Positions 8,873 through 60,497 of a stretch of DNA of 64,000 nt are shown piece by piece. Position numbers and translations under genes: made by a program. A model generated the notes under the pieces. The model was not told where the DNA came from and searched no databases. It was given only the letters and a program-made list of their open reading frames with translations. The DNA lies in contig JAJZQG010000003.1 of NCBI GenBank assembly GCA_021847645.1, forward strand, positions 26,775 to 90,774, written 5' to 3'. Origin of the DNA: Myxococcales bacterium (GTDB taxonomy: Bacteria; Myxococcota_A; Polyangia; Polyangiales; Polyangiaceae). Numbering within the stretch: the stretch's first letter is position 1; each line of letters begins with the position of its first letter.

Positions 8873-10303
8873 ATGGCAGGACGATCCAGCAAGTGGGCAC
8901 TGGCGTTCATCACGGTCGCGATGGTTGGGATGGGGTGCGTGGGCGGATCGAAGTCGGCGACGGTCGACAAGGAAGCGCTCAAGCAATACATCCTCGACGC
9001 GCCGCCGGCGAACATTCCCCACCGCATCGATGCCGACTTCGAGGGCAAGGCCAAGCTGCTCGGCTACGCCATCAGCCCGGAGGGGACGGTGGGCAATGGC
9101 GCCGAGGTCAAGCTGACCCTGTACTGGCAGTGCACCGGCAAGATCGACGAGGGCTGGGGCTTGTTCACCCACGTCCTGGACAACGCCGGAAACCGTTTGC
9201 TCAACATCGACAATGTCGGCCCGCTGCGCGCCTGGGTCGACACCCACCAGGCACTCGCTCCCTCGTACTGGGAGAAGGGCAAGGTGTATGTCGACGAGCA
9301 GACCTTCCGCATGCCCGACAACATGACCACGCCGGAAGTGACCATCGTGACCGGCATCTGGAAGGGCGAGGCGCGGCTCAAGATCATCTCCGGTCCCCAC
9401 GACAACGAGAACCGCGCGATCGTGGCCCACCTCAAGACCGGTGTCGCACCCAAGCCCAAGCCCAACCTGACCATGATCAAGACGCTCCGTGTCGACAAGC
9501 TAGCCGACAAGGAGACCATCACCATCGACGGCAAGCTCGACGAAGAAGCGTGGAAGAAGGCGGCCACCACTGGCCCTTTTGTCGACGTGGGGAGCGGCGA
9601 GCCTAATCCGTCGTTCCCCGTGCAGGGGTCCGCCAAACTCCTCTGGGATGACAAGAACTTCTACGTGGCATTCGAGGTCAAGAGCAGGACCGTGGTCGGC
9701 GGCTGGCCCAAGGACGCCAAGGACCCCCACCTGTGGGAGAAGGATACCGTCGAGATCATGGTCGACCCCGACGGTGACGGCGACAACAAGGACTACTACG
9801 AGATCCAGATCAACCCGCAGAACCTCGTGTTCGACACGCAGTACGACGACTACAACAAGCCCAAGGACGACTCGAAGAACGTCTTCGGCCACATGGAGTG
9901 GTCGGCCAAGGTCAAGTCCGCGGTCGTCGTGCAAGGCGAGCTGGACAAGCCGAACGGTGCGCAGGGCTACACCGTCGAAGCCGCCATCCCGTGGGCCTCG
10001 TTCGCGAAAGCCGCTCGCACGCCCCCCAAGCCGGGTGACACGTGGCGCTTCAACTTCTACGCCATGAAGAACAACTCTGGCGTAGCCTGGTCGCCCATCC
10101 TGGGCCAGGGCAACTTCCACCGCGCCTCGCGCTTCGGCCGCGTCGTCTTCGCGCTCCCCGGCCAGCCCCTGCCCGCGGCCTCCGCGTCGGCGGCCCCTGG
10201 ACCCTCCAGCTCCGCTCCTGCCGCACCGTCGGCCTCCGGCCCCCATCCGCTCCTGCCCCCGCACGTCCCCGCCCCCAAGCCCTCCGCTCCTTCCCCGCAC
10301 TGA
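8873..10303 (+). CDS. secreted lipoprotein with CBM9-like (carbohydrate-binding family 9/DOMON-like) domain and Pro/Ala/Ser-rich tail
   Basis: Signal plus lipobox MVGMGC. The domain runs ITIDGKLDEEAWKKA...DKNFYVAFEV...YYEIQINPQN...DTWRFNFYAMK. Confidence 0.65.
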   Translation: MAGRSSKWALAFITVAMVGMGCVGGSKSATVDKEALKQYILDAPPANIPHRIDADFEGKAKLLGYAISPEGTVGNGAEVKLTLYWQCTGKIDEGWGLFTHVLDNAGNRLLNIDNVGPLRAWVDTHQALAPSYWEKGKVYVDEQTFRMPDNMTTPEVTIVTGIWKGEARLKIISGPHDNENRAIVAHLKTGVAPKPKPNLTMIKTLRVDKLADKETITIDGKLDEEAWKKAATTGPFVDVGSGEPNPSFPVQGSAKLLWDDKNFYVAFEVKSRTVVGGWPKDAKDPHLWEKDTVEIMVDPDGDGDNKDYYEIQINPQNLVFDTQYDDYNKPKDDSKNVFGHMEWSAKVKSAVVVQGELDKPNGAQGYTVEAAIPWASFAKAARTPPKPGDTWRFNFYAMKNNSGVAWSPILGQGNFHRASRFGRVVFALPGQPLPAASASAAPGPSSSAPAAPSASGPHPLLPPHVPAPKPSAPSPH

Positions 10304-34342: not shown

Positions 34343-34422
<80 letters not shown>

Positions 34423-49282: not shown

Positions 49283-50386
49283 TTGGGCTTGCGTGGCCGG
49301 GATTCCGGCGCTGGACTGGTCGTGCGGCACGGCGTTCATGAATGGCGGCAGCGTACTGACCGCGTGTGGAAACTCGTCGAGTTGGTGTCCCGGGACTCAG
49401 CAGTGCTGCCCCATCACCGGCACGTGCTACGACCCGGCGAAATCGGAGCTGTGCAAGGTGCCCCCGGCGGGCACCTACTTCCCTTGCATTCAAGACTCGG
49501 ATTGCCCGCTGCCGACAGACTTCTGCGTGGGACCGACCTGCGGGCGCCGGGCGGCTGCGTGCACCAGGCCAAGCACGACGACTGTACGGGGCAATGGGAC
49601 CCGGTGTGCGGCTGCGATGGGAAGACGTACGTCAACGCCGTTTGCGCTCAGGCGAGCAGGATGGCCGTGGCCCACAACGGCTTGCCGCGTGTCAGTCCAC
49701 ACCTGCGGCGAATCCAACCAGAGAAACGCAGAAACGCAAAGGCGCAGAGGATGGCCCCTTCCTCCGTGCCTCAGCGCCTCTGGTCTCTGCGTTGTTTTCT
49801 GCGAAGCGCTGGCGTGCCGATGGACGGGACGCAGCGGGTGAACAACCTGTTGGGGCAGGAAACGCGCGAGCAGAAGCGCAAGTGGGGAAAGACCTACTGG
49901 GGAGTCGGGGTCGGCGCCACGGCCTTTCCGGGAGGCGTGGGGCTGGTGGCGCCTACCGTCGACCTGGCCGTCTACCACGAAACCGAGACGGTCGCGGTCG
50001 GCGGAGATATCCGGCTGAGTACGGGCGGCAGCGGAGCAGGCGAAAAGGAGGGGTCCTTCGAGGCGCTGTCCGTGGGTGCGCGATACTTCACGTCGGACGC
50101 AGACTCCACGGCGTTCCTCGGGGGCGGACTCTCCTGGTCGGGCGTCCAACTCTACAACGGAGATTGGGATGGCGACGGTATCGGCTTCAGCTTCTGCGCG
50201 GAGGGAGGAGTCGAGGCGCTTCGAACGTACAAGACCCGCCTGGTGGTGGGTGTTCGCGCGACGCTTCCCGTCTATCAGGTGGAACCGAGCTACATCCACC
50301 CTTCTTTTTCGGGCGGGATCGCGCCGCCCACGCCCGAGAAGAAGTACGTGGTGCCGATCAGCCTGGCGGTGACGTTCATGTTCTGA
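49283..50386 (+). pseudogene. frame-ambiguous secreted Cys-rich / Kazal-like region joined to an OMP-like C-terminus (possibly disrupted gene)
   Basis: The frame from 49293 encodes a Cys-rich peptide. The second frame carries the Kazal-like motif CTGQWDPVCGCDGKTYVNAVC, then a Gly/aromatic-rich region ending VTFMF. Neither frame has a credible signal peptide start. Confidence 0.3.
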
Positions 50387-50598
50387 GCCGCGCTTGCCGA
50401 TCGCGTCGATCGCGCGCGGCGAAGGCGCTGGGTGAGGGGCGCGCCGCGAGCAGCCAGAGAGAGCGTCGAGCGCGAGCTCACCTCACCACGGGGGCTTGTC
50501 CATACCCTCGCGCCCGGACCGATCACCGATGGAGCGGCGAGCGCTCCGTCTTGGCGCACCTGACCGCTCTCACGCGCGCGGATCGAGGCAAATAGCAG

Positions 50599-51990
50599 GT
50601 GATCGACGCGCGGCACGAACCTGGCACCGTCGCGCTGCAGGAGGTCATCATGCAGCTGGCGACGACGTCACCTGGCACCGGACAAGATGCAGGGGGATTG
50701 CGCGCGGACGATTGGCGGGCGGGGCGCCCGGCGGAGGATCCGGAGAAGATCAAGCGTTGGGGCGTGGTCACGGCCAAGCCCTCCGAGTACCTGGTGCACG
50801 TGCGTCGCGGGCGCGTTCTGGCGCGCAGCTCGGGGCAGGGGGCGAGCTGCTTCAAGTGGCCTTGGGATGCCGTGGCGGTGGTGCCGACTTCGCTGCAGCG
50901 GCTGAGCTTCCGCGCAGACCAGGTCACGGCCGAGAAGGTGGGCGTGGAGGTGGTCGGTCTGGCGGTCTACCGCATCGCGGAGCCGCTGCTGGCTTATCGC
51001 GTATTGAACTTCAGCTATCCGGAGCGGGCGCAGCAGAAGCTCGAGGAGACACTCTGCAGCATGTTCGTGGGCGCGGCACGTCGGCTGATTGCGAACCTGA
51101 GCGTGCAGGACTGCCTGCAGAAGCGCAAGCACGCCATTGCCGAGGAGCTGCTGCACGAGATCGCGCCCGTGGTGGGCGGCAGCGGGCGCGTGGACGACAC
51201 GACGGTGCAGGGCTGGGGCGTGGTGATCGACACGATCGAGATCCAGGAAGTGCGGGTGTTGTCCGAGACGGTGTTTCAATCGATGCAGGCGCCCTTTCGG
51301 GCCGAGCTGGAGCGCCAGGCCAGGGAAGCGCGCGCGCTGGCCGATCAGAAGGTGACCACGAGGGAAGCGTCCTGCCGTCGGGAGACGGCGGAAGCGCAGA
51401 TCACGGCGGAGGAAGCGATTCGGGAGCGGCGCGCGCTGGCCGCGCGGGCCGCGGCGGAGCAACAGGCGGGCGACGCGAGGCGGGCGTCGGAGCTGGAGGC
51501 GGAGCGGGAGCGTGCGCGGATCGCGGCCGAGACGCTAGTGCAGGAGCACACGGCGCAGGCCGAGCTCGCGCGGCACGAGGCGCGCAGCAAGGCGGCGCTG
51601 CGTCGCATCGCGCTCGAGGTGGAAGAAGCCCAAGCCGAGCGAGCCGCCCTCGAGCTCAGGCTCGGCGCCCAGGAAGCGCGTGCGGCCATGGCGCGCGCCG
51701 AGGCGCTGTTGCGAGCGGAGCTGGACGCCACGAGCGTGCAGTCGGAGCTGGTGCGGGGGCGGGCGGAAGCGGCGGTGCAACTCGAGCTTTCGCAAGTAGA
51801 GAAGGCTCGCGCGGAGGCCCACGCGCGCCGGGTGTTGGCGGAGCGCCTTCCGGATCTGGCCGGTGCGGTCGGCCAGCGCATCGGGGAGGTGCGCATCACG
51901 CAGCTGGGAACCCACGGCAATCCATTCGAATCGATCGTGCAGGCCATCGGCGCGGTCGTGGAGCTGGCTCGCGCAGCGTCGTCGGAGTAG
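50599..51990 (+). CDS. SPFH/band-7 (flotillin-like) protein with long coiled-coil
   Basis: PHB domain (GVVTAKPSEYLVHVRRG...) followed by an Ala/Glu/Arg-rich coiled-coil. Confidence 0.75.
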   Translation: MIDARHEPGTVALQEVIMQLATTSPGTGQDAGGLRADDWRAGRPAEDPEKIKRWGVVTAKPSEYLVHVRRGRVLARSSGQGASCFKWPWDAVAVVPTSLQRLSFRADQVTAEKVGVEVVGLAVYRIAEPLLAYRVLNFSYPERAQQKLEETLCSMFVGAARRLIANLSVQDCLQKRKHAIAEELLHEIAPVVGGSGRVDDTTVQGWGVVIDTIEIQEVRVLSETVFQSMQAPFRAELERQAREARALADQKVTTREASCRRETAEAQITAEEAIRERRALAARAAAEQQAGDARRASELEAERERARIAAETLVQEHTAQAELARHEARSKAALRRIALEVEEAQAERAALELRLGAQEARAAMARAEALLRAELDATSVQSELVRGRAEAAVQLELSQVEKARAEAHARRVLAERLPDLAGAVGQRIGEVRITQLGTHGNPFESIVQAIGAVVELARAASSE

Positions 51991-52012
51991 CGCAGCGCCC
52001 GGGCTTGGAGCG

Positions 52013-53239
52013 TCAGGGCGCGGGGGCTCCGGCGTCGCCCTTTTCGAGCTCCTGGAGCTCTTCGAGATTCGCCTTGGCGCGCGGGTCCTGTGGATCGAGC
52101 TGCTGGGCTTTTTCTAGCGCCTTTCGGGCCTCCGCGAGATTGCCGCGTTGCGCGAGCGCGGTGCCCAGGTTCAGCCACGCATCGACCAGCTTCGCGTCGA
52201 GCTCGATGGTCCGGTGGTACTCGGCTATGGCATCGTCGAGCTTTCCCTGCTGCTGGAGCACATAGCCCAGATTCGATCGATAGGACGCCTGCGACGGCGC
52301 CAGCGCCACGGCGCGCTGCAGAAGGGGCAGGGCCCGCGTCAGCTCGTGCATCGTAGCCAGGGCGGTGCCCAGGTCGTTGAGCGTGCCCGGATCGTCGGGA
52401 GACAGCCGCAAGGCTTTCTCGAAGGCTTGAACGGCGTCGGCGAGGCGATGGCGCAGCACGAGCGCCGTGCCGAGATTGCGCTGGCGTGCGGCGCTCGACG
52501 GGTCGAGCTCGGCCGCACGGCTCAAGGCCTGCAGGCCGTCGTCCGCGTAGCCGGTCGCGATGCAGGCGACACCGAGGGCGGATTGCGCTTCAGGGTCGTT
52601 GGGGGTGAGCGCGACGGCCTTGCGCAGGGCGACGATGGCGGGCTGCGCATGCCCGAGAATCAGCTGGACGCGACCGAGCTCGAGGCTCGCCGGTGCGTAT
52701 GCGGGATCGAGCTTCACCGCGCGCTGCAGGTCCTTGAGTGTGCGGCGCAGGCTCGGATCGTCGGGAGACGACGCATACTGCAGAGAGGAATTGCTACGTG
52801 CGATATCGACGCGCGCGAGTCCGACGAGCGGGGCGGGATCGCGCGGGGCGAGGCGAGCGGCCTTCTGATACGCACGTTTGGCGGCGTCGAGCTGGTCGGC
52901 GTCGAGGGCGGCGTCGCCTTGGGCCAGGGCCTGATCCGCGGGGGAGCCGTCGCCGCGCGCGAGGTGCGGGGGTGGCGAAGGAGGCGGCGGCACGGAGGCA
53001 GACGGGGGAGCGGAGCTGGACGGGTCGACCGGGGGCGCCGGGACCGCAGAAGCGCTCGCGGAAGCGGATGCGACGAAGAGCCCCGGAGCCGGCACGGAGC
53101 GCACGGGCTCGCGCGGTGCGGAGGGCGCCGGTGCGGAGGACGCGCAGCCCGGGGAGCCGGCCAGGCACGCGACACCAACGGCCGCGGCGAGGCACAGGCC
53201 GGCGGCGAGGGCAGCCTCTCTACTCCTTTTTCTCCTCAC
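52013..53239 (-). CDS. tetratricopeptide-repeat lipoprotein
   Basis: Lipobox, Pro/Ser-rich linker, then about 8 TPR units (AxxxYxKAxxLxP...). Confidence 0.75.
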
Positions 53240-54792
53240 GGATTTCCTCGGAGGTGTGCTCCTTGCCGTCGTAGCGGAGCATTACCGGCCTGGATTCGGT
53301 GATGGTCTTGATGACGACGGGGCGCTTCCAGATACGGAAGAGAGCCTTGAGCGCCTCTCTGGCGTAGTCGACGCGCAGGTCGAGCCCCTGGTGGTCGTGC
53401 TCGAGCAGCAGCTCGGAGCGGTTGCCGTGGTTGGCGTCGACCACATAGATGAACGGGCTGCCGAAGTTGGTGAGCTGGGAGAGGAGCTTGGTCTTGATGG
53501 ACTCGAACTGGCGCGTTTCGATTTCGAAGCGGCCGTTGCGCTCGACCCATGCGTAGGTGAACATCTTCTGCTCGACGGCGAACTCGGGAGTGAGGAACTC
53601 GTCGATGAAGGTCACGTCGGTATACAGCTGGCGGACCTGGAAGACCTTCTGGCGGCCGAGGCCCAGGCGCATGTTCCAATGGCGTTTGACCTCGAGGTCG
53701 TCGCACTCCTCCCAGTCCTTTCCGAACTGGCCCTTGTTCCAGCGCTCCTCGATATTGCGATAGAGCTCGACGCCCAGCTTGTAGGGATTGAGACGGCCCC
53801 CGGAGGTGGCGAGAACGCCCGCGGCGTTGTCCGCGTAGTCGATAATCTCGGAAGCGTCGAGCACCTTCTCGGTCATGATCTTGGAGTGCCAATAGGTGGC
53901 CCACCCCTCGTTCATGATCTTGGTCTGCATCTGGGGAATGAAGTAGTAGGCCTCGTCGCGGATGACCTCGAGCACGTCGTGCTCCCAGTTGGCCAGGGGC
54001 GCGTTCTCCAGGAGGAACTGCAGTACGTCGCGGGCGGGGTGCTCGGGGAAACGACGTTTCTTGGCGCGCTGCTCCTCGAGCTTCTTCTTCTGCTCCTCGA
54101 GATACTCCTCGGGGTTGATGAAGGAGTCCATGTACTCCTTGGCGCGCAGCCGGGGCACCTCGACGGTCTCGGGGTTGTCGTCGTTGGTGCGCATCTTGGG
54201 CTCGGCGCCGGAGAAGGGACGCCAGGGGTCGACGAGGTTGTCGAGGCACAGGCAGGTGTCGATGAACTCCTCGATGCGATTGATGCCGAAGCGCTCGATG
54301 TGGCGGCGCAGGCGCGAGCCGTGGTTTGCCATCTTGTCGATCCAACGGCGATTGGGCTCGTAGGGGTGGCGCACGCGCATCGGATCGGTGATGCGGCCGG
54401 AGGCGTCGAGGTCGGTCGCGCGGAAGGAGAAGTTGTGCTTGAAGAAGTCGACATGGGCGAAGACGTGGGCCATGACGAGCTTCTGGTCGGTCAGGGAGTT
54501 GCCTTCGAGCAGATAGGCGTACGAGGGGGTGTTGTTGATGACCATCTCGTAGATCTTCGACAGGCCGTACTCGTTGCTCTTGGCGAGCTGCTCGTACTCC
54601 ATGCCGAAGCGCCAGTGGGGATAGCGCGTGGGGAATCCCCCGTAGGCGGCGATCTCGTTCATCTGCTGGTAGTTGAGGATCTCGAAGATCGTGGGGAACG
54701 GATCGAGGCCGAAGCCTCGCGCGATCTTCTCGATGCGGTCCTGCTCTTTGCGCAGGTAGCTGGGGAGCTGGGTCTTGAGGGCGAACTGGCTC
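53220..54792 (-). CDS. spoVR: SpoVR-family protein
   Basis: [40 protein letters not shown]...[13 protein letters not shown]. Confidence 0.85.
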
Positions 54793-54805
54793 ATCGTGCG
54801 GTGCC

Positions 54806-55918
<1,113 letters not shown>

Positions 55919-56016: not shown

Positions 56017-57048
56017 TTGTCACGCTTCAGCTCCGAACATGTTCTCGATGTCGCACTGCACCGCGGCGCAAACGCACGCTCGCGCACGGCGCGCGGCGCA
56101 GCGTTGTGGACGCTGGTGATCGCGCTGGCGAACGGCTGCTCGAAGTCGAGCGGCACCACGGACGCTGGCACGGCTTCCGCCCCCGACAAATCTGTCGCGC
56201 CGGCTGCCTCGGCCGTCCTTGCGACGTCCCCGGCCTCCTCGTCTGCGCCTGCCGCGGCTGCATCCTCCGGCCCGGCCGACGACCAGGCCCTGTGCCCCGA
56301 AGAGATGGTCTTCATCCCGGGCCCCAAGCCCTTCTGCATCGATCGATGGGAAGACATCCTGGTCGACCGCTCCACGGGCAACCGCCTTTCCCCTTACTAT
56401 CCGGTCGATCGCAAGCTGGCGATGCGTCTGGCCTCGGACTGGGAGACCAAGCGCAGCACGCTGGGCACCGACGAGGGCAAGGCCATTGCGGTTCCGCCGC
56501 TGTCGGCGTGGCAGCGCGGCACGGACGCCGACCCGATGGCGGTCTCGAAGCCGGGCGAGACGCCCAACGGGTACGTCTCGGGCAAGGTGGCGCAGCGCGC
56601 GTGTGAGAACGCGGGCAAGCGGCTGTGCAAGCAGGACGAGTGGGTGCGCGCGTGCCGGGGCAGCGAGAAGCGGCAGTTTCCGTACGGGGACAAGCACGAG
56701 CAAGGCAAGTGCAACATGTTCCGCTTCACGCATCCGGGCGCGGTGCTGCACAACGACGTGACGACGGGCCACCTGGATCCGCGCATGAACCTGGTGTCGG
56801 ACAAGCAGGGGCCGCTGCTTCACAAGACGGGAGAGACGCGCACCTGCCGAAGCGACTGGGGCCAGGACGGCGTGTTCGACATGGTGGGGAATCTGGACGA
56901 GTGGATCGACGACCCGGAGGGGACGTTCCTGGGTGGGTTCTATTCGCGGTCGAAGAAGGACGGGTGCTCCTCGATCGTGAAGAACCACCCGTTCGAGTAC
57001 TTCGACTACTCGCTCGGGGTGCGCTGTTGCCGCGACGCGGGCAAGTGA
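56017..57048 (+). CDS. formylglycine-generating-enzyme (FGE-sulfatase/SUMF1) domain lipoprotein
   Basis: Probable TTG start. Lipobox LANGC. The C-terminus [12 protein letters not shown]...GGFYSRS...[11 protein letters not shown] is typical of the FGE-sulfatase fold. Confidence 0.7.
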
Positions 57049-57346
57049 CGGGAGCGGCGCGCCAGGACGATCAGAGCATCTCCATCCGATAGCTGAATCA
57101 TCAGCCCATCCTGCAAAGGTGTCCGCAACACCTGCACGGACTCGAGGGACGTGCCGCAAGCGCAACCGCGAAGAGTGGCACTTTCGCGGGCCGCCCAGCG
57201 CTCGCTGCGCGCAGCGGGGCGTAGTTGATTCGCGAGTAGGCGCTGATCGCTCGCCGGCGCCTCCCCCAATTGCTCCACCGGCCTCGAGGCCACCTACGTG
57301 AAGGTCAACCACCACGATCCGTGTCGTGGTGCGCAATCGACGGTGT

Positions 57347-57620
57347 TCAGCTTACGGTCGTCTCCGGGGAAGGCTTACCGCGCAGTCGTCGGCTCGCGTC
57401 GACGAAGGTCTGCCGCATCGCTTCTACCAGCGACGGTGGCTTCTTGCGGACTTCGGAGCGCACGATGCTTTGCATGGCCTCGCGACTGTGTGCGCCCGCC
57501 CACGTCTTGGAGCACCCGGAGACCTTGCGGGCCACGACTCCCGGACGGACCTCGCGCTCGGCCGAACGATTCGTTATCGGAACCGATGGAGCCTGCAGGT
57601 ACCGAAACAGGTCGCCCCGG
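57347..57620 (-). mobile_element. IS66-family transposase C-terminal remnant
   Basis: GDLFRYLQAPSVPITNRSAEREVRPGVVARKVSGCSK resembles the IS66 TnpC motif ...dNNaAERalRPvaiGRKNyLF.... The upstream part of the ORF is not transposase-like. Confidence 0.45.
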
Positions 57621-57731
57621 CGATTGAAGCGGCTTCTTGCGCTGGAGAGCAACCCGCGGCCGCGCCGCGAGGCCGCACCGCTGCATCGCGTACGCCCCGT
57701 TCGCCAACTCCGCGCTCGGGGGAAGGCAGGA

Positions 57732-58477
57732 TCACCCGGGAGCAGTCGCGCCGAGCGCCGCTCTGAGCTTCTCGAGGCGACTCGGCCCCGGCGCGTTCGG
57801 CATGAACTGGTCCAGCATCTCGTATTCGGCCAACCCACGAGCCTGCCTCTGGATGTGCTCGGCTGCACGCTCGGAGTCGTCTTGAGCCAGCGCTTCGTCG
57901 CCCACAGCGAGGCAGGCTTCCGCGGCACACAAGACCAACGGCAGCTCGGCAAAACCACCCTTTCGCATTGCATCCAGGTCCGCCATGGCTCGTTGGGCCA
58001 CTCGATGGGCCTCCTGCACGCGCCTTTGCAGCCCGAGCGCTTCGGCCAGGTGCGACAGCATCAGGAGGCGCCGCACCGGTGTGTGCTGCGACAGCGCAAC
58101 GGCCCTTTGAGCTTGCTCTTCCGCTTCTGACAATCTCCCCGCGGCCGCATGGGTCCGCGACAAAACATCGCGCGTCATCGCTTCGTACCCGGGCGTGCTT
58201 CCGGGAGTCGCCAGCCGCGCAGCGCGAGCGCCAGGCTGTCCGCCTCGTCTCGCGGGTCCTTGTCGGCTCTGTCGGCCAGGATGTTCGCCAGCGCAAGCTG
58301 GGCATGCGAGGTGAGCCGTGCGCTTCCAACCTCTTCTGCCAGGGCAAGCCCCGCGCGAACGGTGCATTCGGCCCGCTCGAACCGACATCGATGTCGTCGT
58401 CCGGCGGTACGCGCCCTGGCGGCTAGGCTGGAATCGCGCCTCACGACACAGATGGAGTCCTGGTGACGCGCGGCCAC
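57732..58477 (-). pseudogene. frameshifted C-terminal TPR-like fragment (resembles the C-terminal TPR region of myxobacterial regulatory kinases)
   Basis: Two overlapping minus-strand ORFs in different frames (57732..58388 and 58175..58477) both encode TPR-like helices. No N-terminal domain is present. Confidence 0.35.
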
Positions 58478-58500
58478 TGGCAGGCTGATCGGCCGCGGCG

Positions 58501-58640
58501 TCCCGTTCAGACGGGGTCGTTCCCGTTCAGACGGGGTCGTTCCCGTTCAGACGGGGTCGTTCCCGTTCAGACGGGGTCGTTCCCGTTCAGACGGGGTCGT
58601 TCCCGTTCAGACGGGGTCGTTCCCGTTCAGACGGGTTGGA
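58501..58640. repeat. tandem direct repeat, 20-bp unit TCCCGTTCAGACGGGGTCGT x about 6.75
   Basis: Seen directly. Each unit contains the short palindrome CCCGT-TCAG-ACGGG. There are no spacers. Confidence 0.9.
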
Positions 58641-58650
58641 TCCGGAGAGA

Positions 58651-58810
58651 ACGTTCCTGCGAGGGTTCCATTGCTCTGCGGGAACCCCCCGGCTTTGTCG
58701 AGGGTCGGTGACTCGCGGGCGATGAACGACGGGTGTTCTTCCATCGCAGAGAATCACCCGTTCGAGTACTTCGACGACGCGCTCGGGGGGCGCCGTTCCC
58801 GCGATGCGGG
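58651..58810 (+). pseudogene. diverged duplicate of the 3' end of the FGE-domain gene (about 85% identity to 56921-57065)
   Basis: ...[29 protein letters not shown] versus the original ...[29 protein letters not shown]. The downstream ggcgc(g/a)ccaggacgatcaga is also shared. The stop is mutated (TGA to TGG). Confidence 0.5.
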
Positions 58811-59068
58811 CAAGTGGCAAGATCGGCGCACCAGGACGATCAGACTCACGAGGATCACCACGGTGCCGAGCACACCGAGGGCCAGGCCGACTGCGCTGAA
58901 GTTCATCGCTTCGGAGATTCCTTCGGCCAGCAGGCGGGCCTTCTGCGACGGCTCGACGCTGGCGACCTGGCCGAACGCGCGTTGCAGGTAGATGGCAGTG
59001 GCCGTGAAGCCGAGCAGCGGTCCGAGCAGCAGGGCCGACGCTCCGGTCAGCAGGCCGAGCCACGGCAC
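58754..59068 (-). pseudogene. truncated MotA/TolQ/ExbB-family C-terminal fragment
   Basis: ...ARLLAEGISEAMNFSAVGLALGVLGTVVILVSLIV matches the TM3 region of the family. The N-terminal half is absent and the 3' end runs antisense into the FGE fragment. Confidence 0.4.
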
Positions 59069-59306
59069 CTTGAGTGCGCGATCGGCGGTGGCGTCGGTCC
59101 CGGCAGGGCAGGCGGGGAGTGCATTGGCCGGAATGGCCGAAGCCAGGGGCCGGACTGGCCATCGAAATCACGGACGGGCGAGGTCGTCGCCGCGTTCCGG
59201 GTAAGGGTTCGTGCGATCGGTCGAACGCAACGGTTGCGTCGGGCCGGTGCCGGCGTATCATCGCGCAGAAGAAAGTAAGAAGTTGCGCTGACAAGGAGCT
59301 GCTGCC

Positions 59307-60497
59307 GTGAGCCATCGGTCGAGGACGCTTCAGGTAGGTATCTCGCTGTTCTTCGGTGTCGTTGCGACGGCGCCGCTGGGGTGCGGGAGCAGCGGACAGG
59401 ATGGACCTGCCGCGGCGAGCGGCGGGGTTGGGGGAGGCGGCGGTGCGGCCATGGGCGGCGGTGCTGGCAGCGCGGGCGCGGCAGGCGGGGGCGGAGCGGA
59501 CGGCGGAGCGGACGGCGGCGCGGCGGGCATGGCGGGCATGGGGGGTACGGGCGGAGCGGACGGCGGCGCTGCGGGCACGAGCGGAGCTGGAGGTTCGGGC
59601 GGTTCGGAGGCGATCGTCGACCCGGCGCTCGACGGGCCCTTCACCACGGCCGAGTTGGACGCGAATACCACCGTGGCGTCGACCGGCCACGCGGTGCCGA
59701 TTCACTGCGTGGTTCCCACGGGAGGTCCGGGCGCCGGTCCGTACCCGATCGTGGTCTTCGCGCATGGGTTCCAGATTCCCGCGTCGCAGTACTACGGATA
59801 CATCCGCAAGCTCGGGGGCTTCGGCTACGTGGCACTGACGGCGGACTTTCCGGCCGGGCTGCTCAGCGTCGACAACGTGGCGAACGCCAAGGATCTGCTC
59901 GGTGCGTTGGATTGGGCCATCGCGCAATCCGCGGACGGGGGCAGCCCCCTATCGGGCAAGGTCGACCCGGCGCTGGTGGGCATGAGCGGCCATTCGCTGG
60001 GAGGCAAGCTGTCGCTGCTCGCGGCCACTCTCGACCCGCGGGTCAAGGCCAGCATCACGCTCGATCCGGTCGACACCTCGGCCCAAGGCTGCGCACCCGC
60101 GAATTGCCCGGACGTGAGCGCGTCGATGTCCTCGCTCGCCATCCCGACCGCGTTCGTCGGGGAGACGACCGACGCGACGGGGACGTTCCAGGCGTGCGCG
60201 CCCGCTGCGGACAACTATGCGACGTTCTACGCCAACGCCAAGCCGCCCTCCCTGGAGGTGACCGTGCAGGGCGCCAATCACATGAGTTTTGTCGACGACC
60301 CGGTGAGCTGCGGGCTGGTGTGCTCGTTGTGCAAGCCGGCGACCGCGCCGCACGACCAGGTCATCGGCCTGTCCTATGCGTATGTCGTGGCGTTCTATGA
60401 GCGCTACCTCCGCGGCCAGGCCGGCTACGACGACTATCTGACAGGGCCGACGGCCCAGGCGAGATACGCGGGGCTGGCGGCCATCGAATCGAAGTAG
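59307..60497 (+). CDS. alpha/beta-hydrolase lipoprotein (chlorophyllase/dienelactone-hydrolase/PETase-like) with Gly/Ala-rich linker
   Basis: Lipobox APLGC; (GGA)n linker; nucleophile elbow GMSGHSLGG; Cys-rich C-terminal half. Confidence 0.7.
   Translation: MSHRSRTLQVGISLFFGVVATAPLGCGSSGQDGPAAASGGVGGGGGAAMGGGAGSAGAAGGGGADGGADGGAAGMAGMGGTGGADGGAAGTSGAGGSGGSEAIVDPALDGPFTTAELDANTTVASTGHAVPIHCVVPTGGPGAGPYPIVVFAHGFQIPASQYYGYIRKLGGFGYVALTADFPAGLLSVDNVANAKDLLGALDWAIAQSADGGSPLSGKVDPALVGMSGHSLGGKLSLLAATLDPRVKASITLDPVDTSAQGCAPANCPDVSASMSSLAIPTAFVGETTDATGTFQACAPAADNYATFYANAKPPSLEVTVQGANHMSFVDDPVSCGLVCSLCKPATAPHDQVIGLSYAYVVAFYERYLRGQAGYDDYLTGPTAQARYAGLAAIESK

Follow-up and report, generated by a model that had tools for sequence, protein, structure and literature searches.

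A probable duplication-plus-insertion scar between convergent genes in a Polyangiaceae genome

How can a tract of broken genes come to lie between neighbours that are themselves whole? The question is raised by a region of about 2.2 kb (positions 57050–59300) in a 64,000-nucleotide stretch, hereafter the window, of a Myxococcales bacterium of the family Polyangiaceae (assembly GCA_021847645.1, contig JAJZQG010000003.1, positions 26,775–90,774). An earlier reading of the letters, referred to here as the original prediction, described a gene-decay island in which five independent relics and a tandem repeat lie between two intact lipoprotein genes. We conclude that the region is probably the non-functional scar of one lineage-specific event of duplication plus insertion, or of a short series of such events. 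The feature is of an already known and ordinary kind, a pseudogene and insertion sequence (IS) scar. The gene order around it is SpoVR and DUF444 genes on the minus strand, a gene with an FGE-sulfatase domain on the plus strand, a 104-aa ExbB-like open reading frame (ORF), here called mini-ExbB, on the minus strand, and a hydrolase gene on the plus strand.

Empty site and duplicated gene overlap

The site is covered by one relative, the 1206-bp contig L062. On this contig the 3' end of the FGE gene, an ExbB-like gene that converges on it and overlaps it in the stop region, and the hydrolase gene are contiguous with no intervening DNA, and the segment that separates the two copies of the FGE tail in the window (57076–58632) is missing. 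The genes and copies concerned are as follows.

56017–57048, plus strand: FGE-sulfatase-domain gene, putative lipoprotein, left flank, intact (Pfam PF03781, E 1.3e-9)
56901–57075, plus strand: copy A, the FGE 3' end and 27 nt past its stop codon, 89.7% identical to L062
58633–58844, plus strand: copy B, an FGE-tail pseudogene (direct repeat families D2 and D4; three-way alignment)
58754–59068, minus strand: mini-ExbB, a MotA/TolQ/ExbB-like ORF of 104 aa with a GTG start (Pfam PF01618)
59307–60497, plus strand: chlorophyllase/PETase-like alpha/beta hydrolase gene, putative lipoprotein, right flank, intact (Pfam PF07224, E 1.5e-20)

The direct repeat between 56944–57075 and 58713–58844 is 132 nt long and 84% identical (blastn E 7.8e-36), and the similarity reaches outward to 56901 and 58633. 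In the three-way alignment, copy A tracks both L062 and copy B to position 57075 and is unrelated to them from 57076 on. Beyond that point copy B agrees with the relative at 25 of 51 positions. The 27 nt of copy A past the FGE stop codon are a remnant of the ancestral mini-ExbB 3' end. Copy B begins beside the tandem array and runs on into the ExbB-like gene, as the sequence does in L062. Within the 27 nt, 13 bases are common to copies A and B and differ from L062, while only one is shared by copy B and L062 alone. Since these bases are derived in both copies, the duplication arose in the window's own lineage. The old insertion suspected in the original prediction is thus borne out by the empty site and placed in that lineage by the polarity of the duplication. 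The FGE fragment, taken earlier for an independent relic, is a lineage-specific duplicate of the 3' end of the neighbouring FGE gene.

Copy B holds only the last ~55 FGE codons. It carries a 41-column insertion (alignment A2; approximate bounds 58671–58712), a frameshift and 20 private substitutions, and its FGE part is therefore dead. No complete FGE-sulfatase (PF03781) domain in one frame is found in 58633–58844, where Pfam gives no match, and the ~41-nt insertion has no match in the window or the compared loci.

These relationships suggest the following course. In the ancestor the FGE gene and the small ExbB-like gene would have been convergent with overlapping 3' ends, with the hydrolase gene behind them. 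In the window's lineage the overlap segment of ~175 bp was duplicated. Its copies, now at least 1.56 kb apart, enclose 145 bp, the right end of an IS66 element, 82 bp, the tail of a kinase gene, 106 bp and the 20-bp array. The FGE gene uses copy A and mini-ExbB uses copy B, so that the duplication left both genes with an entire 3' end. The FGE portion of copy B, being redundant, would have decayed afterwards through its insertion, frameshift and 20 private substitutions, and the array may have grown in place by slippage. The mechanism may have been Campbell-type integration of a circular DNA bearing the overlap through a single crossover, a small tandem duplication whose junction then captured DNA, or template-switching repair. 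As in the scars of Campbell-type integration or tandem duplication, chromosomal direct repeats of ~175 bp bracket inserted DNA and both interrupted genes are complete, a likeness of layout from which such an origin may be proposed. Unlike Campbell-type products, this scar shows no circular donor, integrase or plasmid function, and its insert is patched together from dead fragments.

Segments of the insert

Between the copies lie the following segments.

57076–57220: 145-bp non-local segment beyond the IS66 end, not in L062
57221–57649, minus strand: IS66-family relic, the right terminal inverted repeat and the last ~90 transposase codons (Pfam PF03050)
57650–57731: 82-bp segment between the kinase-tail stop codon and the IS66 truncation point
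57732–58394, minus strand: 3' ~15% of a PknK-like Ser/Thr kinase-AAA_16-TPR gene, ~210 codons of ~1300 aa (phmmer and tblastn)
58395–58500: 106-bp segment
58501–58635: perfect tandem array of the 20-bp unit TCCCGTTCAGACGGGGTCGT (Tandem Repeats Finder: 6.8 copies, 100% identity)

The IS66 remnant named in the original prediction is supported by Pfam, by tblastn and by its right terminal repeat. The DDE_Tnp_IS66 profile matches at positions 238–283 of 284 (E 9.6e-8, 32.2 bits; cut-off 23.1). The tblastn queries, found by tblastn against plasmids, were full-length IS66 transposases encoded on plasmids of Planctomyces and Deinococcus. Only residues 365–443 of 455 align, from 57649 to 57416 (E 8e-10), and a word-based homologue search with the relic gave no match. 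The stop codon of the relic is at 57347. On the transposase strand the inverted repeat CGCGAATCAACTAC runs from 57234 to 57221 with two mismatches to CGCTAATCASNTAC. In the 64 kb, on both strands, only two sites match the IS66 terminal repeat with at most two mismatches, this being one, and the relic therefore retains its right terminus. Neither a full-length DDE transposase (~450–530 aa) nor any other part of a transposase is found in the window. The left end is absent, so that one of the two terminal inverted repeats survives. The closest known systems are single-ORF IS66 elements (455-aa transposase, repeats GTAnCTGATTAGCG) of plasmid pPL62-2 of Planctomyces sp. SH-PL62 and of a Deinococcus taeanensis plasmid. 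The relic is 41–46% identical to them over residues 365–443 and matches their right terminal repeat. Unlike these intact elements, it lacks the left end and ~80% of its transposase. The two compared elements terminate in GTAnCTGATTAGCG / CGCTAATCAGnTAC with the repeat at most 30 nt from the stop codon, whereas the window has it 113 nt past the stop. From the terminal repeat it is another 145 bp to the left junction at 57075/57076. With the IS66 terminus thus 145 bp inside the insert, this junction is not a transposition junction. The 145-bp segment has no family match and no counterpart in the rest of the window or in the compared loci, and the 82-bp segment likewise matches nothing in either.

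The TPR fragment is likewise a real relic, the frameshifted C-terminal tail of a kinase-AAA-TPR gene. Direct Pfam matches to TPR fall under the cut-offs. Exhaustive phmmer matches the last ~150–210 residues of proteins of 1279–1391 aa that bear Pkinase and AAA_16 domains (E down to 1.6e-19), and tblastn places the tail at 58387 to 57735 with a frame change near 58220–58229. PknK-like STAND Ser/Thr kinases of ~1300 aa are abundant in myxobacteria. The ~210 residues of the tail are 38–45% identical to the C-termini of three such proteins with Pkinase, AAA_16 and C-terminal TPR-like repeats (P0019, P0022 and P0023). With these as tblastn queries, only residues ~1085–1385 are found at the locus. 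Unlike the complete kinases, the fragment is frameshifted, and neither the N-terminal Pkinase nor the central AAA_16 domain is found in 57732–58394. A Pkinase match at 62.8–63.8 kb belongs to a separate 400-aa gene.

A word-based search of 5.8 billion proteins returned only one near-identical partial relative, frameshifted too. The 954-bp contig L063 from another sample (European Nucleotide Archive, ENA, ERZ27237563) holds a 96%-identical copy of 58382 to 57966 in a different context, in which both the upstream sequence and the frameshift differ from those of the window. This copy may represent either the donor or a paralogous relic. The similarity to L063 stops by eye near 58394, where the 106-bp segment begins, although blastn aligns only to 58382. 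That segment has no other match in the window or compared loci. On L063 about 70 further upstream codons are readable, and a strong GC-rich hairpin lies at ~150–180.

Base composition does not set the region apart. Its GC content is 0.65–0.69, like its surroundings, and the insert without the array has a tetranucleotide distance z of −0.08 (rank 106 of 251), so the k-mer anomaly that a foreign island might display is not seen. The G+C content at third codon positions (GC3) is 0.73 in the kinase tail and 0.75 in the IS66 relic, compared with 0.84–0.89 in the neighbouring genes, and the relic ORFs have a weak codon-position signal. This composition fits native or near-native DNA adrift rather than a foreign island. 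The strongest tetranucleotide outliers of the 64 kb lie elsewhere, at 50250–53000 and at 53250–55000. The first has a GC content of 0.70–0.71, rising to 0.78 in one 400-bp profile window (52.8–53.2 kb); the second, the SpoVR gene region, is unusually low in GC (0.62).

The relics span only the 3' ends of their families. Comparison of the region with the window by tblastx gave only sum-statistics noise, and the small unassignable ORF listed in the original prediction has no candidate with a family match or a clear codon-position signal. The count of five independent relics is therefore too high: the IS66 relic, the kinase tail and the FGE tail are real, the last of them a local duplicate.

Both flanking ORFs are intact, as originally described; their lipoprotein status is putative, since the lipoboxes, read from the sequence, appear plausible and non-canonical. 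Purifying selection acts on both genes relative to L062, with a ratio of nonsynonymous to synonymous substitution rates (dN/dS) of 0.07 for the FGE tail and 0.32 for the hydrolase, which adjoins the mini-ExbB gene in the same position on L062. The FGE gene has a GC3 of 0.88 and encodes 343 aa in the window. The metagenome-assembled genome (MAG) annotation has a 247-aa version, and the 343-aa form has no exact database record. Homologues of FGE occur at 59 Polyangiaceae loci, the alignment spanning residues 4–340, and assign the organism to this family. At these loci (L001–L059, Polyangiaceae and Sorangium, 45–68% identity) none of the window's neighbours is shared and no mini-ExbB gene is found within 10 kb, and they are therefore uninformative on the scar site. 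The trio of FGE, mini-ExbB and hydrolase genes appears confined to the lineages of the window and L062. In the hydrolase the lipobox is followed by a Gly/Ala-rich low-complexity linker with imperfect 48–60-bp repeats (59400–59610); the linker of L062 is similar in kind and differs in sequence.

Tandem array and competing explanations

The tandem repeat of the original prediction is confirmed as a perfect 20-bp array at 58501–58635. Each unit is predicted to form a 5-bp hairpin, and the fold z-score of the array DNA is −2.55. The unit is not found elsewhere in the window or the compared sequences. Derivation of the unit from the FGE sequence upstream of copy A was rejected, the local alignment scoring 8.0 where shuffled sequences average 7.5 and 231 of 500 shuffles equal or exceed it. 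Contig DAHVXJ010000339.1 of MAG GCA_027356765.1 (L060) is nearly identical to the window, with one mismatch and a 100-bp length difference. It holds 1.75 units (9295–9329), compared with 6.75 in the window. Contigs L061, L067, L151 and L152 each terminate within the array. In sample ERZ27237050 the left contig stops at 58633 and the right contig begins at 58504, and two Logan contigs end ~30 nt into it. The difference in copy number may be either real polymorphism or assembly collapse. Because contigs break in the array and copy numbers disagree, the length of the insert is a minimum. Each flank of the array, left and right, is present in three datasets, and the two are likely to be adjacent in the genome.

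The array resembles variable-number tandem repeats and plasmid iteron arrays, with their head-to-tail units of ~20 bp, in that about seven abutting 20-bp copies vary in number between assemblies. Unlike those arrays it occurs once and its copies are all identical, which fits recent slippage. No replication initiator gene is found among the ORFs and no AT-rich region (GC 0.65–0.69), as an iteron array or replication origin would have.

Several points weigh against a single duplication-plus-insertion scar. The sole relative at the site lies on a 1.2-kb contig, and a donor locus was not found for any junction. The join across the array is carried by two long contigs with different copy numbers, and four short-read contigs break there. 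The MAG annotation calls a 109-aa gene within the kinase tail, though nothing supports a function. The ancestral start codon of mini-ExbB is lost by frameshift, and this gene may itself be decaying.

The array invites the explanation that the assembly joined two places ending in the same 20-bp repeat, or that the array conceals more sequence. The unequal copy numbers of the window and L060 and the four contigs that stop inside the array agree with this, as does the length of the assembled array, which at 135 nt is just below the k-mer size of 141 implied by k141 contig names. Yet the same flanks are joined in two long contigs, no alternative flank occurs in any dataset compared, and the unit is nowhere else in the compared sequences. 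Even with the two halves unlinked, the FGE gene is cut from mini-ExbB at 57075 and copy B exists, so that the rearrangement is real with or without linkage of the halves. We regard an assembly artefact as quite unlikely. An eroded composite transposon or genomic island brought in by IS66, as the original prediction proposed, would account for the transposase tail with its recognisable terminal repeat, and the kinase tail, which occurs with 96% identity in two or more contexts, could be travelling with a mobile element. However, the 64 kb contain a single IS, itself partial: self-blastn of 57000–59310 against the window gives only the FGE-tail repeat and the array, and tblastn finds no further IS66 match. 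Between the IS end and local DNA lie 145 bp. IS66 elements generate 8-bp target duplications, whereas the repeat here is ~175 bp long and is a gene segment, not an att site. Island ORFs give no integrase or recombinase Pfam match, the sole tRNA of the window is distant (34347–34422), the composition is native and the insert is just ~1.6 kb. A composite transposon or genomic island is thus very improbable.

The remaining alternative is that the region is functional, either through an expressed short TPR protein or other small ORFs, or through the array acting as a variable hairpin regulator or terminator of mini-ExbB. It would draw on the annotated 109-aa ORF, on the position of the array 118 nt downstream of the mini-ExbB stop with serial hairpins (z = −2.55), and on the copy number that varies between assemblies. 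Against it, the fragments contain frameshifts and have low GC3, the entire region is absent from L062, and the hairpin stems are only 5 bp long with no T tract. A consensus scan of the region gave no promoter-like site, and its single terminator-like site, in the kinase tail, is within the 1.8 that chance would produce; the best Rfam match (E 0.93) is far under the gathering score. There is no sign that the insert has a function, and of the explanations weighed here this one is the hardest to credit. A non-functional scar of duplication plus insertion remains the probable account.

The half-size ExbB-like gene

Mini-ExbB had been listed as an ExbB fragment among the relics. It is an open ORF with an orthologue in L062 and is part of the ancestral locus; it predates the insertion and is not its product. 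The nearest homologue, P0002 on L062 (754–1101), has 115 aa and 64% identity. The dN/dS between the two is 0.37, near the 0.32 of the hydrolase, and the GC3 of 0.86 is as in host genes. The PF01618 match is marginal (23.1 bits; cut-off 22.9) and covers profile positions 53–109 of 127. Homologues of mini-ExbB have 69–130 aa, and all 12 invariant columns of their alignment are kept. An ATG at 59124, the position-equivalent of the L062 start, is out of frame by +2 nt, and the only available start is the GTG at 59068. Mini-ExbB is probably a maintained small gene, perhaps recently shortened or disabled.

Among the ExbB/TolQ/MotA stator proteins (PF01618), the canonical ExbB proteins of 217–219 aa are encoded in exbB-exbD-exbD clusters, as on L094. 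Mini-ExbB aligns to residues 87–189 of these ExbB proteins (second and third transmembrane helices, TM2 and TM3, with the loop between) and shares this core, including DPSQKARLLAEGISEAMN, at 44–51% identity. Unlike canonical ExbB, it is half-size, lacks TM1 and the cytoplasmic domain between TM1 and TM2, has no adjacent exbD or tonB, and has its GTG start right at the first membrane helix. The N-terminal half is not found nearby. No ExbD/TolR gene is adjacent, the neighbours being the FGE and hydrolase genes. Full-length relatives have two exbD genes downstream; short relatives have none. Standalone ExbB-like ORFs of 97–130 aa with no exbD neighbour occur within unrelated contigs (L073, L082, L091 and L139; P0003–P0015). 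They comprise only TM2, the DPSQKARLLAEGISEAMN loop and TM3, some with a directly fused TM1. A metagenome scan with the mini-ExbB alignment found mostly full-length ExbB genes of ~217 aa, short forms making up only 4 of 59 complete ORFs. A literature search, limited and not conclusive, returned nothing relevant on ExbB/TolQ proteins that are short or orphan. That mini-ExbB is a working member of an undescribed standalone class of half-size ExbB proteins (TM2, DPSQKARLLAEGISEAMN loop, TM3; no ExbD partner) is a tentative idea that we consider doubtful.

The scar matters little beyond annotation. For curation, the 109-aa ORF in the kinase tail and the FGE-tail copy are pseudogene fragments, and the array is a weak point of the assembly. 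With the empty site as a control, the locus illustrates how dead DNA between convergent overlapping genes disables neither of them, the overlap having been duplicated. Only the recurring family of half-size ExbB ORFs offers a lead of broader interest. If such a class exists, a half-size ExbB could enter or modulate stator complexes whose genes lie elsewhere, and the 175-bp duplication would have persisted because both overlapping convergent genes stayed whole around the inserted DNA.

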